Below the pieces are notes generated by a model. It was not told the origin of the DNA, ran no database searches, and worked only from the letters and a program-made list of their open reading frames with translations. A program made the translations under genes and the position numbers. This document shows positions 3,630 through 40,566 of a stretch of 64,000 bases of DNA, in pieces. Numbering within the stretch: the first letter of the stretch is position 1; every line of letters starts with the position of its first letter. This DNA comes from an uncultured bacterium (GTDB lineage Bacteria; Patescibacteriota; Minisyncoccia; Moranbacterales; GWC2-37-73): positions 21,220 through 85,219 of the forward strand of contig CAISKQ010000060.1 in the NCBI GenBank assembly GCA_903885965.1, in the 5' to 3' direction.

Positions 3630-4988
3630 CTACTTTCTCCATATATGTTCTAACTTTATAATTCCATATTGATTTTTTTCATTCGATATTATTTTAAAAA
3701 CATATTCTCTATTTTTATAATCAAAATGAGTTGTTTCTTTATATTTTTCGTAAAGCGAAACCGATAGTTGATAAGATCCGCTGAATAATTTAATACTCAG
3801 CATCACAAAATCAACAAATCCATCTCCGTAAATATTGTTAATATCATATCTGGATGTTTCAGTGTTTGGCCCTGAAATATGAATGCCGTCTTGAGTATGA
3901 ATTGCGACACCAAAAACAGGGTTTTCTATTTTCTTTTTTGCATTGTAATGTATCCTCGCCACAATATCATCTCCTGACTCAAAAACATTTTTTTCTTTTC
4001 CATCTTTATCCAAAAATTCCACTTTTGTGATTTCTGCAATTTTATTTTTTCTTTCCTCCTCCTGTGTTGCTTTTTCTTCTTCAATTCTTCTTTTTTCCTC
4101 CTCCAAGTCCTTTCCTTTCAATTTTTTCATTTCTTTTTGAACTCGCATATCTTCTTGTTTCTGCTCCTTTTCTATTCTCCTTTCTTCATCTGACATGTTC
4201 TGATAAATATATTCGTTTCCGACTTCCTCAGGATCGCCAATTTTCACAATTTTGCCACTTCGAAGCAACATCGCCCGGTCGCAATAGCGCTGCACCACAG
4301 CGATGTCATGTGTGACAATAACAACAGTTCGCCCCATCTCCCGATATTTATTAAACTCCTCCAAACATTTTGATTGAAAATTTGAGTCACCCACTGCCAA
4401 GACTTCATCCATCAGCAAAATTTCGCGATTAGCGTGAATAGAAACCGAAAATGCAAGACGCACTTGCATTCCAGAGGAATAATTCTTGAGTTTTTGATCA
4501 ATAAATCTTTCCAATTCTGAAAAAGCCACAATAGCATCAAATTTTTTGTCGATTTCTTTTTTGGTCAGGCCCAGAACCGTGGCGTTGAGATACACATTGT
4601 CTCGACCAGAAAGTTCAGGATTAAAACCAATTCCCAATTCTAAAAATGGAGAAATTCGCCCTTTGATTTCAATCTTCTTCTCGGCTTTCCGAAGGTTCAA
4701 CCTTCGGTGTTCCGAAGGTTCAACCTTCGGATGCGCATCAGCGTCTGGTTGATAAATCCCAGCCAAAATTTTCAGTAATGTCGATTTGCCGCTTCCATTT
4801 CGCCCAATGATCCCAAAAAATTCCCCTTTTTTCACCTCAAAAGAAACGTCGTCAAGGGCTTTGAATTCTTCGAAGCCTCCACTTTTAAAAACACTCGTAA
4901 CCGCTCCTCTGAGAGAGGAGATTTTTTCATGCGGAATCCTAAATGTTTTTGAAACATTCTTTACGCTAATTGCAATATTATCTTCCAT
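3630..4988 (-). CDS. Polysaccharide/teichoic-acid export ABC transporter ATP-binding protein (Wzt/TagH-like) with a coiled-coil linker and a C-terminal Wzt_C-like carbohydrate-binding domain.
   Basis: Walker [10 protein letters not shown], signature [11 protein letters not shown], Walker [14 protein letters not shown]-loop VVIVTHD. 452 aa against about 250 aa for a bare ATPase. K/E-rich linker then a beta-rich tail. Confidence 0.8.
   Translation of the reverse strand: MEDNIAISVKNVSKTFRIPHEKISSLRGAVTSVFKSGGFEEFKALDDVSFEVKKGEFFGIIGRNGSGKSTLLKILAGIYQPDADAHPKVEPSEHRRLNLRKAEKKIEIKGRISPFLELGIGFNPELSGRDNVYLNATVLGLTKKEIDKKFDAIVAFSELERFIDQKLKNYSSGMQVRLAFSVSIHANREILLMDEVLAVGDSNFQSKCLEEFNKYREMGRTVVIVTHDIAVVQRYCDRAMLLRSGKIVKIGDPEEVGNEYIYQNMSDEERRIEKEQKQEDMRVQKEMKKLKGKDLEEEKRRIEEEKATQEEERKNKIAEITKVEFLDKDGKEKNVFESGDDIVARIHYNAKKKIENPVFGVAIHTQDGIHISGPNTETSRYDINNIYGDGFVDFVMLSIKLFSGSYQLSVSLYEKYKETTHFDYKNREYVFKIISNEKNQYGIIKLEHIWRK
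4688..4729. repeat. Two tandem copies of a 19-bp palindrome CCGAAGGTTCAACCTTCGG, separated by TGTT, embedded in frame in the Wzt ATPase CDS.
   Basis: Direct reading. Encodes an extra segment (...[24 protein letters not shown]...) between Walker A and the Q-loop region. A single copy occurs in the decayed paralog at 6603..6621. Confidence 0.85.
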
Positions 4989-5051
4989 CCTTCTTTATAT
5001 TTTATATAGTATCTTATATGGAATTAACTTGATCCATATTAGTTTACCTCC

Positions 5052-5083
5052 GAGCTAAGCTCCTGAGTACAGGAGCTTAGCTC
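5052..5083. repeat. Perfect 14-bp-stem hairpin GAGCTAAGCTCCTG-AGTA-CAGGAGCTTAGCTC upstream of the wzt start.
   Basis: Direct reading. No flanking T-run, so it is not a canonical terminator. Confidence 0.7.
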
Positions 5084-5152
5084 CATCCCAATATACTACT
5101 AATTTAGTTAAGTTGGTATCTTATATGGTACTTCACATCTATCCTCATCCAT

Positions 5153-5190
5153 CATTCCAAAACTCGACGACCGCATAGTTTTGGTATCAT
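5153..5190 (+). promoter_or_regulatory. Copy 1 of a 40-bp palindromic element (CCAAAAC-N14-GTTTTGG followed by TATCAT).
   Basis: Sequence tccaaaactcgacgaccgcatagttttggtatcat. Family of 4 copies. Confidence 0.5.
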
Positions 5191-5420
5191 TGATTTTTTA
5201 CGCAAAATAGCAACCCGCTATAACAAACTTCTGTTTTTTTCTCCCCTTTTCCCGCATAAATAAGAACAAGTCAACCCCATTAGGAATTCTTTTTATAAAT
5301 CAATACTATCATTATACCACCAAAAATGCAACGCGCATTTAACCCAAAATCAAGTTGAATAGCCCCTCCTTTGGTTATTACATGCGAGCGGCAATAATAC
5401 TAAATTTTTACCCCAATTTT

Positions 5421-5462
5421 ATTATTCCAAAACACGACGACCGCATAGTTTTGGCATAATGG
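5421..5462 (+). promoter_or_regulatory. Copy 2 of the palindromic element with a -10-like CATAAT.
   Basis: attattccaaaacacgacgaccgcatagttttggcataatgg. Confidence 0.5.
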
Positions 5463-5523
5463 AAAATATCGGTAAATTCACATAGCTTATCCACATCAGA
5501 TGTTTAGATTAAGCTTAATATCT

Positions 5524-5566
5524 GATTATTCCAAAACACGACGACCGCATATTTTTGGTATAATGG
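5524..5566 (+). promoter_or_regulatory. Copy 3 of the palindromic element with an extended -10-like TGGTATAAT.
   Basis: gattattccaaaacacgacgaccgcatatttttggtataatgg. Confidence 0.5.
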
Positions 5567-5609
5567 GGTATCTTACCCCACTTAAAACAACGCTCCTAAC
5601 GTCAAAGGC

Positions 5610-6164
5610 TTAATACAATTTGAATTTTAGTTTGAGCTCTTCCCCATTAGAGATGTTTACAACCTCGCCATAGCGAACAAGATTTCGAAGTTGAAAATAT
5701 TCCGTGATGAAATTAATTTCATCCAAACAAGGAAAAGGATGGATAAAAACAGATTTTTGAATTTCTTTAAAGCCAAGCTCTTTCAGTTTTTCCCGAAGAA
5801 CATTCCGCTCCGATCTTCTTTTCTCAGGAATATCAAACATCACAAGCCGCCATCGATTATCCCATTTCAAGGGTTTAGGAATCTTAATAGCATCTATTTT
5901 AAATTCAAGTGTTTTTAGCTTTCCTTTTTCCGTTAGCACAATTTTAGTAGTTCCATTTTCTTGTTCAAGATAATCCACCAAGCGTTCTTGCTTAAATTCT
6001 TTTACAGCCCGGTATAGATATTGCTTATTTATCTCGTGCCAATCGCGCTTGAGCGTTTTGAAAACATTCTTTTGCGACCTTGGATTATTTGCAAGTCCAA
6101 GAGCCACTCCTCCTGCAAGAAGAAGTAGTATCTTTCTTTTAATTGGGCTCCTTATTTCTTTCAC
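5610..6164 (-). CDS. PaaX-like transcriptional regulator (N-terminal winged-helix-like region plus a PaaX_C-like domain).
   Basis: DNRWRLVMFDIPEKRRSERNVLREKLKELGFKEIQKSVFIHP matches the PaaX C-terminal domain pattern (W..V.FDIPE..R..R..LR..L..LGF..LQ.SV%). Confidence 0.5.
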   Translation of the reverse strand: MKEIRSPIKRKILLLLAGGVALGLANNPRSQKNVFKTLKRDWHEINKQYLYRAVKEFKQERLVDYLEQENGTTKIVLTEKGKLKTLEFKIDAIKIPKPLKWDNRWRLVMFDIPEKRRSERNVLREKLKELGFKEIQKSVFIHPFPCLDEINFITEYFQLRNLVRYGEVVNISNGEELKLKFKLY

Positions 6165-6216
6165 CTTATTTACAATGAATTTATTTTTGTCTTTTTATTA
6201 TTCTTATTGAAATCCT

Positions 6217-6258
6217 CATTATACCAAAACAAGACGACCGCATAGTTTTGGTATAATG
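6217..6258. promoter_or_regulatory. Copy 4 of the palindromic element, here with TATAAT on both strands. It sits about 50 nt upstream of the PaaX-like gene start.
   Basis: cattataccaaaacaagacgaccgcatagttttggtataatg. On the minus strand TGGTATAAT precedes the ATG at 6164 by about 45 nt. Confidence 0.55.
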
Positions 6259-6296
6259 CTTGCTAAATATTTTCTGCAATCTTTGCTTTGAAAATT

Positions 6297-6882
6297 ACTA
6301 TCTCCCACTGCCAAAACCTCATCCATGAGCAGAATCTCGCGGTTGGCGTGAATCGAAACCGAAAACGCGAGACGAACTTGCATGCCGGAAGAATAATTCT
6401 TGAGTTTTTAATCAATGAACCTTTCTAATTCTGAAAAAGCCACAATGGAATCAAACTTTTCATCAATCTCTTTTTTCGTCAGCCCCAAAACCGTCGCATT
6501 AAGATAGACATTATCGCGCCCAGAAAGTTCCGGATTAAAACCAATCCCCAATTCCAAAAACGGGGAAATTCGCCCGTTGATCTCAATCTTTTTCTCGGCT
6601 TTCCGAAGGTTCAACCTTCGGGGATACGTCTTCGTCAGCCTGATAAATCCCCGCCAAAATTTTCAGCAAAGTGCTTTTTCCGCTTCCATTTCTCCCAATG
6701 ATCCCAAAAAATTCTCCTTTTTTCACCTCAAAAGAAACGTCATCAAGAGCTTTAAATTCTTCGTAACCTTTGTTTCGCTTGAACACGCTCACTGCTGCAC
6801 CGCGAAGAGAACTCACCTTTTCGTGAGGAATGCGGAAAGTCTTGGAGACGTGAGAGACTTTAATTGCGATATTATCTTCCAT
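6297..6882 (-). pseudogene. Decayed duplicate of the 5' about 600 bp of the wzt/tagH ATPase gene, frameshifted at the palindrome.
   Basis: ORF 6583..6882 ([22 protein letters not shown]...[19 protein letters not shown]) and ORF 6408..6614 in another frame (RISPFLELGIGFNPELSGRDNVYLNATVLG) are colinear with wzt residues 1-200. Nucleotide identity to 4380..4988 is visible. Homology stops near 6297. Confidence 0.75.
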
Positions 6883-6944: not shown

Positions 6945-8171
6945 CTACAATGACCAAGGATACAGATATTCCTTATTGAGAATATCACCCTCTAATGATA
7001 CTAGGTTATATTTTTTTATATTATACTTTTCTTGAAAATATCTCACTGCCGAAGGATTAAATTTATTAAAGTTAATCTTTGCCTCAATTGGCAAAAATGA
7101 ATTATTTTTTCGCAAAATAAAATCTATCTCTTTCTTATCTTTTGTTCTCCAATAAAGCACATTATCTTTACCATATTTTTTTACCAATTCTGAAAAAATT
7201 CCAGTTTCAAAAACATTTCCAATGATTTCTTTTTGCAAATTCTTGAGCCACAACATCTGCATAAGACCAGTATCATAAAAAAGTATTTTTGGAGTCTTAA
7301 ACAATTCAGATCTGATATTTCCACTATATGGATGCACGAGTTTTATTATATAGGTATTTTCCATAATAAAAAGGTATCTCTCAACTGTTGGCTTGGCTAT
7401 CTTGCATGTGTTTGACAATTCAGTGACATTTAAAAGATTGCCACTCTGTGAGGCCAAAACCTCCAACAATTTGTTAAATTTGTCTATATCCTTTATTTCA
7501 GCAAGATCCCTTATATCCTTACGCACATAGGTATCAATAATTTGTTGTAAATATTTTTCCTTTTTTTCTCTTTCCCTTGTCAAGACAATTTTTGGATATC
7601 CACCAAAAAGAATGTATTCCTTGAAAAGTTTTTTCAACTCATCTATTTTCTTTTGAGTAAAAACTTTTCCTTTTTCAAAAGGATACCCCTTAAATAATAG
7701 GAATTCAGTAAAGGATAAGCTAAAAATTTCAAAATTAACAGTTCTTCCAACCAATGAATCGCTAAATTTATTTTTTATTTCGAAACTAGAAGACCCTGAA
7801 ACCACAAGCTTTATATTCTTATGATGATCTGAAATTAATTTTAAAAAAGACGATGGATGTTGCAGATATTGAATTTCATCAATAAAAACATACAATTTTT
7901 TATTGCTAGTGGCACTCTTCTTTGCCTTATTTAATAATCCCTCTTCAGCAAGAAGGTCAATAAAGCTTTCAACTCCGGAATCAATAATAGCCACATATCT
8001 AGAATCTTCAAGGTCTATATAGAAAACTTGCTTTTTCTCTCTTTCTAGCATCTCTTTGAAATAATATAGTATGTGCGTCTTACCCACCTGTCTTGCCCCA
8101 TGCAAAACCACAATATCATCAGTATTGAGATATTTGCTTATTTCTGACGTTATTTCCCTCTTATAAAGCAT
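6945..8171 (-). CDS. AAA+ ATPase of the COG1373/DUF4143 family.
   Basis: Walker A HGARQVGKTHIL, Walker B LYVFIDEIQYL, and the C-terminal domain typical of DUF4143 ATPases. Paralog at 36748..37917. Confidence 0.75.
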   Translation of the reverse strand: MLYKREITSEISKYLNTDDIVVLHGARQVGKTHILYYFKEMLEREKKQVFYIDLEDSRYVAIIDSGVESFIDLLAEEGLLNKAKKSATSNKKLYVFIDEIQYLQHPSSFLKLISDHHKNIKLVVSGSSSFEIKNKFSDSLVGRTVNFEIFSLSFTEFLLFKGYPFEKGKVFTQKKIDELKKLFKEYILFGGYPKIVLTREREKKEKYLQQIIDTYVRKDIRDLAEIKDIDKFNKLLEVLASQSGNLLNVTELSNTCKIAKPTVERYLFIMENTYIIKLVHPYSGNIRSELFKTPKILFYDTGLMQMLWLKNLQKEIIGNVFETGIFSELVKKYGKDNVLYWRTKDKKEIDFILRKNNSFLPIEAKINFNKFNPSAVRYFQEKYNIKKYNLVSLEGDILNKEYLYPWSL

Positions 8172-8282
8172 TTTTTTAGATTTATTGCTACTTATACTAT
8201 AATTATAGTCGAACTTAAATCTATGTCAAGTGTAATTTAAGTTTGATGCCAGAAGAATAAACAGTTATTAAACTTCTTGTTT

Positions 8283-8433
8283 TTGAGTTTCTGATCAATG
8301 AAACGCTCAAGTTCCGAAAAAACCACGATACCCCTAAGAGAACTCACCTTTTCGTGAGCTTGTCTGCCGCCGAGGCAGGGATTTTGAAAGTCTTTAAGAC
8401 GTTTTTAACTGAAATAGCGATATCTTCATCCAT
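8283..8433 (-). pseudogene. Second, internally deleted remnant of the wzt 5' end.
   Basis: Minus strand encodes MDEDIAISVKNVLKTFKIP (wzt N-terminus). 8283..8330 matches wzt 4485..4535 and the remainder matches 6805..6882. Confidence 0.6.
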
Positions 8434-38006: not shown

Positions 38007-38036
38007 ATCTTAGCTAATTTGAGCCCTTTTGGCAAG
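38007..38036. repeat. Direct repeat copy 2 of the porB 3' end sequence.
   Basis: tcttagctaatttgagcccttttggcaagcat. Confidence 0.85.
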
Positions 38037-38147
38037 CATTAGAATTGTATAATGTATTTTGTATGATGTATAAAGTAGCTATGCGCTTCCCACGTCTATA
38101 CATCATACTTTCTACATAATGAAAAACTAACTTGTTTTTTCATCACA

Positions 38148-39657: not shown

Positions 39658-40566
39658 TTAGCTAATTTGAGCCCTTTTGGCAAGCTTTTCGAAATTTTCA
39701 TTAACCGTCTTTTGAATTTCTTTAATCACCTCAAGATTTTTTTCTTTAAAGAGATGTTTAAAGCGTCCTTGGGTTTTCAGGAATTCTTCAATCGGCTTTG
39801 GCTCCTTCACAATATTATTGATGATATATTTTCCATCTTCTATTTCAAAAAGCGGCCAAAAATTAGTTTCAGTGGCAAGTTTTCCAATTGCAACATACTC
39901 CGAAGTTGGAAATTTCCAAATTTGCGTGCAAGGTTGCAAAACCAACAAAAAGGATGGACCTGGAGTGTTTAAAGCTTTTTGAGCTTTGCGTTTCAGGTCT
40001 GGCAGATAAGCAACATTAGCTTGGGCCAAATATTTGATCCCATGGGCTTTGACAATTTCCATCAAATCTTTGCGTTGCTGAGTTTTGCCAAATGACTGAC
40101 TGCCAACTGGAGCCGTTTCAGTGTTGGCGCCATATGGGGTTGCGCCACTACGCTGTCCTCCAGTGTTCATGTAGCCTTCATTGTCATAGCAAACATACAA
40201 AAAATCATGTCCGCGTTCGAGAGCACCAGAAAGCGCTTGCAGGCCAATGTCATAAGTTCCACCGTCGCCACCAAAAGCGATTATCTTGGCAGGATTTTTT
40301 AACTTTCCGGATTTTTCCAAAGCTTTTTGCGCCGCATCAATCCCGGCCGCGGTGGCTGCCGCATTGCCAAAAACACTGTGAATATATGGCACTTTCCAAG
40401 AAGTTGATGGATAAATCGTTGTTGTCACTTCAAGACAACCAGTTGCGTTTGAAACAATCACTTGCTCATCGGTTGCCCCCAGCACAGTCCGCACAATCGC
40501 CGGAATTCCACAACCCGCGCAAGTAGCATGACCAGAAGAGAATTTTTTGGTAAGATCTTTATTCAT
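39658..40566 (-). CDS. porB: Pyruvate/2-oxoacid:ferredoxin oxidoreductase beta subunit (TPP-binding).
   Basis: GHATCAGCGIPAI (Cys ligand region), GGDGGTYDIGLQALSGA (TPP-binding GDG). Confidence 0.85.
   Translation of the reverse strand: MNKDLTKKFSSGHATCAGCGIPAIVRTVLGATDEQVIVSNATGCLEVTTTIYPSTSWKVPYIHSVFGNAAATAAGIDAAQKALEKSGKLKNPAKIIAFGGDGGTYDIGLQALSGALERGHDFLYVCYDNEGYMNTGGQRSGATPYGANTETAPVGSQSFGKTQQRKDLMEIVKAHGIKYLAQANVAYLPDLKRKAQKALNTPGPSFLLVLQPCTQIWKFPTSEYVAIGKLATETNFWPLFEIEDGKYIINNIVKEPKPIEEFLKTQGRFKHLFKEKNLEVIKEIQKTVNENFEKLAKRAQIS

Follow-up and report, generated by a model that had tools for sequence, protein, structure and literature searches.

What is the function of four copies of a palindromic element that crowd around a single regulator gene? 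The question is raised by a 64-kb stretch (the window; 37.6% G+C) of the metagenome-derived contig CAISKQ010000060.1 (ENA ERZ18647568), whose relatives are Moranbacteria-like bacteria of the candidate phyla radiation (CPR). The four copies share one orientation on the plus strand and are confined to 1.1 kb around the gene for a PaaX-like protein of 184 amino acids. We conclude that they are probably double-stranded DNA operators of the enclosed protein, laid over promoters. To our knowledge, very few pairs of transcription factor and operator have been characterized for CPR bacteria, or Patescibacteria, and the protein and its 38-bp site make a compact candidate pair that is directly testable. 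The regulatory logic would be conventional; the value lies in having a regulator-operator pair for poorly understood bacteria and in the correction of a misannotation.

The four copies and their common plan

A first-pass annotation, made from the letters of the window, had placed four same-orientation copies near 5153, 5421, 5524 and 6217, and all four are indeed there, their left edges shifted by 1-3 nt (Table 1). A pattern search of the window for CCAAAAC-N14-GTTTTGG, the dyad proposed in that annotation, gave plus-strand matches at 5157, 5427, 5531 (one mismatch) and 6224. When up to two mismatches were allowed there were six matches against 0.64 expected, and the remaining two, at 28641 and 35303, are weak and unrelated. 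The invariant 12-mer GACGACCGCATA occurs exactly four times in the window, compared with 0.07 occurrences expected, and a repeat search returned one 47-nt family of four copies at spacings of 270, 104 and 693 bp. No fifth copy was found in the 64 kb with an nhmmer profile of the site built from many instances, the next best match having an E value of 2.8.

The dyad of two 7-bp halves around N14 did not hold up as the unit. The meaningful unit is a tripartite 38-bp site, with the plan TTATACCA-N7-ACGACCGC-N7-TGGTATAA in the window, in which the arms lie 22 bp apart and the core is central. Homologous loci keep a fixed 8-7-8-7-8 geometry, in which 7-bp A/T-rich linkers join the 8-bp core to an 8-bp arm on one side and to its inverted counterpart, also of 8 bp, on the other. 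Copy 4 is a perfect palindrome with 14-bp arms whose symmetry extends to 6217-6258; it had been described as palindromic out to TATAAT on both strands, and so it is. The presence of TGGTATAAT on the plus strand of copies 3 and 4 was likewise reported correctly, and copy 4 carries it on the minus strand too. The counterpart of TGGTATAAT is TGGCATAAT in copy 2 and TGGTATCAT in copy 1. Copy 3 lies 46 nt past the stop codon of the regulator gene.

Table 1. Positions of the sites, genes and other features of the locus, in window coordinates
Feature	Position	Strand	Description
Site copy 1	5152-5189	+	TCATTCCA-aaactcg-ACGACCGC-atagttt-TGGTATCA
Site copy 2	5422-5459	+	TTATTCCA-aaacacg-ACGACCGC-atagttt-TGGCATAA
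Site copy 3	5526-5563	+	TTATTCCA-aaacacg-ACGACCGC-atatttt-TGGTATAA
Site copy 4	6219-6256	+	TTATACCA-aaacaag-ACGACCGC-atagttt-TGGTATAA
PaaX-like regulator gene	5610-6164	-	GTG start at 6164; 184 aa; proposed site-binding repressor
Predicted extended -10 box TGGTATAAT	6226-6218	-	Left arm of copy 4, facing the regulator gene; predicted start about 6210, leader about 46 nt
wzt	3630-4988	-	ABC-transporter ATPase with Wzt_C; first gene of a glycosyltransferase/export cluster; candidate second target
Spacer between copies 1 and 2	5193-5415		223 nt; no open reading frame longer than 34 aa
Frameshifted wzt fragment	6282-6882	-	aa 1-207; 84-85% DNA identity to 4374-4988; abuts copy 4
AAA_14 + DUF4143 ATPase	6945-8171	-	Matches PADLOC candidate defence family PDC-S01, E 7e-82

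Linkage of the site to a family of PaaX-like genes

Is the site tied to this gene, or does it merely happen to surround it here? When one genome per species was searched for AAAAC-NN-GACGACCGCATA-N-TTTT, 14 loci emerged, belonging to Moraniibacteriota, Parcubacteria, Nomurabacteria, Saccharibacteria and unclassified Patescibacteria. The motif adjoins a regulator homolog in locus L013 (97% identity, five copies), in L011 (85% identity, copies on both sides) and in L012 and L004 (33-37% identity, again with copies on both sides). Homolog loci were also fetched directly (L017-L023, plus 80 metagenome loci, L024-L103), and sites were counted in the flanks of the gene, defined as 250 nt upstream and 400 nt downstream, in 76 distinct homolog loci from CPR bacteria. 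The flanks, 46.3 kb in all, hold 64 strict 8-7-8-7-8 sites, against 13, almost all poor, in 256 kb elsewhere in the same loci, so that strict sites are about 27 times denser beside the gene family. With the arm spacing relaxed, at least one flanking site is present in 55 of the 70 loci with enough flank; the control gave 11 matches in 189 kb. The upstream sites end 23-79 nt before the start codons of the homologs and the downstream sites start 2-124 nt past their stop codons, and in the window clade a locus usually has three to five copies. By sequence comparison, then, the pairing of gene and site recurs in most of the related CPR loci examined.

The first-pass annotation had allowed that the motif might be a genome-wide repeat unrelated to the regulator. 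It is instead tied to the PaaX-like gene family, and four copies in 64 kb, all within 1.1 kb, are not what a dispersed repeat would give. Three matches in viral contigs were set aside as chance matches; they are G+C-rich and have neither the arms nor the gene.

The protein itself matches PaaX_M of Pfam (PF20803, Cas2-like) over residues 100-168, with an E value of 1.2e-21 and 77 bits against a cut-off of 24, and residues 1-99 have no Pfam match. In an AlphaFold2 model with a mean predicted local distance difference test score (pLDDT) of 70, the Cas2-like half scores about 90. The N-terminal half, at a pLDDT of 50-65, is modelled as helix-helix-helix-strand-strand, a putative winged-helix-like arrangement. 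The top Foldseek match of the model is E. coli PaaX (8A39; 200 aligned columns, E 4e-5). Further Foldseek matches in the PDB are Rv0674, followed by Cas2 proteins for the C-terminal half and by winged-helix F93, PadR and ORC2 for the N-terminal half; a sequence search of the PDB with the regulator gave only marginal matches, one a Cas2 and the other QsrR. Nothing follows the Cas2-like domain, since the chain stops at residue 184; there is no Pfam match to PaaX_C, and the 22 aligned homologs are all of 171-225 amino acids. Against the PaaX equivalog model TIGR02277 of NCBIfam it scores 29.5 bits, far under the cut-off of 264.55. No paa genes were found in the window region or in loci L001-L023, where the neighbours in their place are wzt, glycosyltransferases, a lipase-like surface protein and the DUF4143 ATPase. 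Because it has no effector domain, no nearby paa genes and an equivalog score below the cut-off, the protein is not a PaaX orthologue; it represents a CPR-wide subfamily of PaaX-like regulators without a ligand domain. This is a large family: the word-indexed candidates at E <= 1e-3 form 1217 clusters at 90% identity, and of the representatives at 50% identity at least 327 reach E <= 1e-30 and 2583 E <= 1e-10. The literature searched contained no paper linking PaaX or Cas2-like regulators to CPR, and no description of the motif or of the role of this subfamily.

According to a review (PMC9493321), the binding site of E. coli PaaX is TGATTC-N27-GAATCA, and the protein hinders RNA polymerase at Px, its own promoter, which it thereby represses. 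Both proteins have a Cas2-like domain, which is central in PaaX, and the winged helix of PaaX has a putative counterpart in the window protein. In both systems the operators, putative ones in our case, consist of short inverted repeats tens of base pairs apart, with one over the regulator's own promoter (judged here from position) and more at neighbouring operons. The differences are as clear. At 184 amino acids against about 305-316, the window protein is without the C-terminal helical domain by which PaaX senses phenylacetyl-CoA; the gap in its proposed operator is 22 rather than 27 bp; and the site has a third element, the conserved central core, which is not described for PaaX. In addition, the arms vary between CPR genomes, sites lie on both sides of the gene, and paa genes are not found near it.

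The relationship to Cas2 calls for comment, since public records name many CPR homologs "CRISPR-associated endonuclease Cas2". They were deposited under this name because the protein just passes the cut-off of the NCBIfam cas2 model TIGR01573 (28.8 bits against 24.5, over about 37 residues, 105-142); the Pfam CRISPR_Cas2 cut-off is passed over the same residues (26.7 bits against 23.8). A degenerate CRISPR-like locus with this protein as its Cas2 would account for these scores, for the Cas2-type ferredoxin fold of the C-terminal domain and for the nearby palindromic repeats of about 38 bp. However, the repeats are irregularly spaced and flank the gene, which lies between them, whereas a CRISPR locus would have a regular array with spacers; no CRISPR array was found in the window, nor was cas1 among the genes called in six loci fetched for the window protein and four homologs. 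The full-length fold, moreover, matches PaaX, with a putative winged-helix-like domain fused at the N terminus that Cas2 does not have. We give the CRISPR explanation almost no credence. The Cas2 naming of these CPR proteins is a recurrent database misannotation, and the neighbourhoods examined show no CRISPR context.

A probable protein-bound operator over a promoter

The anatomy of the site across the family gives an indication of what kind of molecule it is. The core, with the family consensus RCGRYCGY, is mostly a perfect palindrome (ACGATCGT or GCGATCGC); GCTATCGC, GCGATAGC and ACGGTCGT are also seen. Its type follows the protein clade, being GACGACCGCAT at about 64% protein identity or more and one of the two palindromes in more distant members. 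In the window clade, delimited by the same identity, the core reads GCGGTCGT on the sense strand of the gene, which fits the consensus and is asymmetric. The arms are more variable than the core. The commonest are TTATACCA/TGGTATAA, other lineages having TGGCGCCA, TGTATCCA, TGGAACAA, TGTCACAA or TGGTACCA, and the inner CA/TG of the arms is nearly invariant. Among 97 distinct sites picked by the core alone, arm complementarity averages 6.13 of 8, compared with 2.14 at random flank positions. In the 64 strict sites, 7 of the 8 arm pairs have changes on both sides, in 91 cells, and no slid control is comparable; this set was pre-selected for pairing at 7 or more of the 8 arm positions, so its percentage paired is biased. 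The arms of half-sites differ at 0.5-0.64 of 8 positions within a locus and at a mean of 2.9 of 8 between loci. That they are nearly identical within a genome yet different between genomes points to one trans-acting reader. This anatomy, its conservation and its association with the gene family are properties of the aligned loci themselves.

Such strong co-variation of the arms, with the core kept while the arm sequence changes, is also what a hairpin in RNA or single-stranded DNA would give. The site could then be a processing or stability signal, an attenuator, a terminator, or a stem-loop bound by the Cas2-like domain, which resembles an RNA recognition motif, with the core in the loop. Folding energies of -15.4 to -17.9 kcal/mol for copy 4 (z about -6), the many sites directly past stop codons or between convergent genes and the fixed strand of the asymmetric core would all suit a hairpin. 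Linker pairing, however, is limited to 55% of cells, with a shuffled mean of 42%, and in most lineages a hairpin would be left with a loop of 22 nt; the inner AAAAC/GTTTT pairing of the window lineage falls in these linkers, outside the arms. The centre of such a loop is palindromic in most lineages, a property that a hairpin loop does not need, and G:T makes up 9 of the 37 arm mismatches, with no clear excess of the kind that G:U pairing in RNA would leave. Nor would independent hairpins need one arm sequence common to all copies in a genome, and the upstream copies would precede the predicted start of transcription. The stability of the four copies is uneven, ranging from -5.6 to -15.4 kcal/mol on the plus strand, and for copy 3 the fold has no advantage over shuffled sequence (z -0.4). 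Rfam 15 finds only two tRNAs in the window at the gathering score and nothing at E <= 1 in 4900-6400; a terminator scan recognized none of the four sites as an intrinsic terminator, and no T-run follows any right arm. We therefore regard the hairpin as improbable.

A palindromic centre, linkers that are mostly unpaired and the absence of a clear G:T excess are better accommodated by a symmetric protein on double-stranded DNA, and neither a hairpin in RNA nor a CRISPR array nor a dispersed repeat fits the data as well as an operator does. The operator reading follows from the association of gene and site, from a two-fold symmetry that includes the centre and from the arms shared by the copies in a genome. 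From these observations we infer binding by the PaaX-like protein, promoter activity and the direction of regulation. In the best-supported mechanism, a two-fold symmetric oligomer, most simply a dimer formed through the Cas2-like domain, would contact both arms and the core.

The arms themselves suggest how binding might regulate transcription. About half of all arms in the family match an extended -10 element (TGnTAnnnT). Scored as TGn plus at least five of the six positions of TATAAT, such an element is present in 15 of the 29 gene-facing arms of upstream sites, and all eight arms in the window read TGG(T/A/C)AT(A/C/G)AT. The window contains 10 occurrences of TGnTATAAT where 3.4 would be expected, and four of them are in the 1.1-kb regulator region. 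In the window lineage the arms would thus double as extended -10 elements (TGGTATAAT or a close variant) that point outward, and the protein, once bound, would obstruct RNA polymerase in either direction. The core was also considered as a -35 element and rejected, its spacing to the -10 being wrong on both strands.

Copy 4 fits an autoregulatory operator over the regulator's own promoter, because it lies 54 nt before the GTG, much as the upstream sites of the homologs do, and its gene-facing arm is TGGTATAAT. Its occupancy would bring about negative autoregulation of the regulator gene. An autoregulating dyad operator over an extended -10 had been proposed in the first-pass annotation, and this core idea gains strong support from the comparative evidence: the range of 23-79 nt for upstream sites, the flanking sites in 55 of 70 loci and the TGGTATAAT of copy 4. 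The accompanying placement was right in putting copy 4 upstream of the regulator and wrong in detail; a distance of about 45 nt from an ATG was given, and the first start is the GTG at 6164.

Copy 3 is a post-stop site, a position common among family members irrespective of the gene downstream. Even in the 8 of 25 loci whose next gene is convergent, such a site is kept. Where a gene for an M16 peptidase follows the regulator (L047, L054, L056 and L094), the downstream site lies about 40 nt before the peptidase start, the same as the distance from site to regulator. Copy 3 itself may serve to control an antisense promoter, to form a loop with copy 4 or to act as a roadblock.

A more elaborate version of this model, which we think rather doubtful, treats each site as a self-contained two-way promoter-operator whose half-sites are the outward -10 boxes. 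The regulator would be bracketed by these units, at its start and directly past its stop, for sense and antisense control or as a repression loop or an insulator, and the arms would drift rapidly and in step in all copies of a genome while the core stays fixed. If true, this design of fast-changing specificity would be typical of CPR, and it is not described for PaaX or other winged-helix repressors. Aspects of the arrangement are familiar: in the lambda CI (OL/OR), LacI (O1-O3) and GalR systems, too, several operator copies lie within about 1 kb, some over a -10, with the regulator gene among them. The protein family is unrelated, however, and the proposed half-sites in the window coincide with extended -10 boxes on both strands; the classical systems work by occlusion and possibly looping, and any looping or cooperativity in the window would be conjectural.

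Several observations weigh against our interpretation. The link between protein and site rests on co-occurrence, and the N-terminal DNA-binding domain is modelled at low confidence (pLDDT 50-65). There is no clear match between recognition-helix residues and arm sequence: some Arg/Lys swaps in the putative helix accompany the difference between TGGCGCCA and TGGTACCA arms, yet residues differ among lineages that share their arms, and relatedness confounds the comparison. The asymmetric core has the same orientation in 34 of its 35 occurrences beside the gene, which a symmetric dimer would not need, although the copies are probably orthologous across the clade and the 34 are thus not independent events. 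A promoter consensus scan found no -35 element at the four sites, and the arms TGGCGCCA and TGTATCCA of some lineages cannot be -10 boxes. Finally, isolated copies elsewhere are often between convergent genes (L005, L007 and L010), where a promoter is not expected. The operator reading leaves unexplained the fast change of the arms, to which no obvious change in the recognition helix corresponds, the core orientation, the post-stop site and the isolated sites between convergent genes.

Might a different factor read the sites, or might they be a general CPR promoter module that merely co-occurs with the PaaX-like gene? The failure of the arms to follow the recognition helix would suit such an explanation, as would their resemblance to a generic extended -10 box and the isolated copies that adjoin unrelated genes (rpoB, the genes for TyrRS and a Mur ligase, and L28). 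Against it, strict sites are concentrated beside the gene family, the core type changes with the protein clade, the window copies surround this gene only, and arms such as TGGCGCCA are not promoter elements. We judge this explanation to have about as little chance as the hairpin, and an operator of the PaaX-like protein remains our preferred reading.

wzt and the surrounding DNA

The first-pass annotation had suggested that the copies downstream of the regulator fire antisense to it or drive small transcripts, a reading that the evidence neither favours nor disfavours. For copy 1, a different role appears more plausible. It lies 163 nt from the wzt start, a distance that falls to about 56 nt once a 107-bp insertion in the wzt leader (5022-5128) is removed. 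In L013, a site is found 46-70 nt upstream of each of two wzt 5' fragments. Because these distances resemble that of copy 1 without the insertion, copy 1 is better explained as a putative wzt promoter-operator than as an antisense or small-RNA promoter. Its occupancy would repress the wzt export/glycosyltransferase operon, and the link suggests that the window lineage regulates an operon for the export of cell-surface glycans.

The insertion itself is absent from L013, is flanked by a 13-bp direct repeat (GTATCTTATATGG; 5009-5021 and 5116-5128) and carries a perfect hairpin at 5052-5083 (stem 14 bp, loop 4 nt). It resembles a small element whose insertion duplicated the target.

Copy 2 and a 57-nt spacer form a 104-bp unit that is absent from L024, where the protein is 94% identical. 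Unequal recombination between direct repeats would be expected to leave such a unit in one relative and not in another, and copy 2 appears to be a recent local duplicate.

At 91.9% in L013 and 81.0% in L024, the spacer that separates copies 1 and 2 is conserved slightly better in near relatives than are the third codon positions of the regulator (88.6% and 75.1%). It was not found in the equivalent inter-site segments of the more distant L030 and L031. It aligns weakly to wzt, with 5319-5340 resembling the region of the wzt signature motif, and holds an extra TGGTATAAT at 5311-5319 on the minus strand; it may be a decayed scrap of wzt or a lineage-specific transcript. The small open reading frames in 4989-5609 are of only 20-37 amino acids. 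A recurring MRSS(S/C)FG among them was rejected as a gene, since it is the translated conserved core with variable continuations.

Could the repeats be the ends of a mobile or duplicating cassette, or recombination sites, with the regulator as cargo? Elements resembling miniature inverted-repeat transposable elements (MITEs), repetitive extragenic palindromes (REPs) or attachment-site (att) repeats would explain why direct repeats bracket the gene. From copy 1 to copy 4 the window shares 81-98% identity with L013 and L024, and conservation falls to 54-72% just outside; the wzt fragment abuts the edge of copy 4, the 104-bp repeat-to-repeat unit comes and goes among relatives, and the module sits in a variable island, one of whose genes is a candidate for defence. 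Like REPs and MITEs, the sites are short intergenic palindromes, sometimes between convergent genes, whose copy number varies by recombination. Yet the module has no recombinase or transposase, nor a REP-associated tyrosine transposase (RAYT) partner, and the few copies are found at one gene family. Variable arms around a conserved centre are the reverse of transposon ends. The neighbourhood of lipase-like surface protein and wzt is kept across Moranbacteria-like genomes, the viral-contig matches are without arms and due to chance, and unequal recombination between any direct repeats would explain the presence and absence of the unit. A mobile cassette is in our estimation slightly less probable even than a hairpin or another factor, and we retain the proposal that the repeats are operators.

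Fragments of the wzt 5' end are scattered around the module. In the window they lie at 6282-6882 and 8279-8433; in the relatives they are at 1234-1580, 2428-2853 and 4048-4326 of L013 and at 226-318 and 819-1482 of L024. The fragment of amino acids 1-207 stops right at the edge of copy 4 in all three loci. This distribution suggests repeated insertion or duplication events at the 5' end of wzt. Within wzt itself, 4681-4730 holds 2.2 tandem copies of a 23-bp unit with the palindrome TCCGAAGGTTCAACCTTCGGA, which are read through in frame. The 84%-identical fragment has a single unit (6595-6617), and its frameshift is exactly there; because the length of the unit is not a multiple of three, its copy number sets the wzt reading frame.

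In the relatives, the neighbourhood also holds genes of island type: an MmeI-type restriction enzyme, KilA-N, a nucleotidyltransferase pair and DUF3800. In L009, too, a DUF4143 ATPase has an isolated site beside it. At 760-870 of L007 (Saccharibacteria, CAYIOX010000030.1), the site between convergent genes is flanked by the long perfect palindromes GGCACATTTACGCCATGGCGTAAATGTGCC and ATATTTACGCTATAGCGTAAATAT.

Further along the window, a 28-nt exact direct repeat, TTAGCTAATTTGAGCCCTTTTGGCAAGC, occurs three times (36699-36726, 38010-38037 and 39658-39685), with unrelated flanks and at separations of 1311 and 1648 bp. A minus-strand tRNA gene (36571-36643) lies 56 nt away from the first copy, and the three repeats may be attachment-site-like repeats of small tandem insertions.

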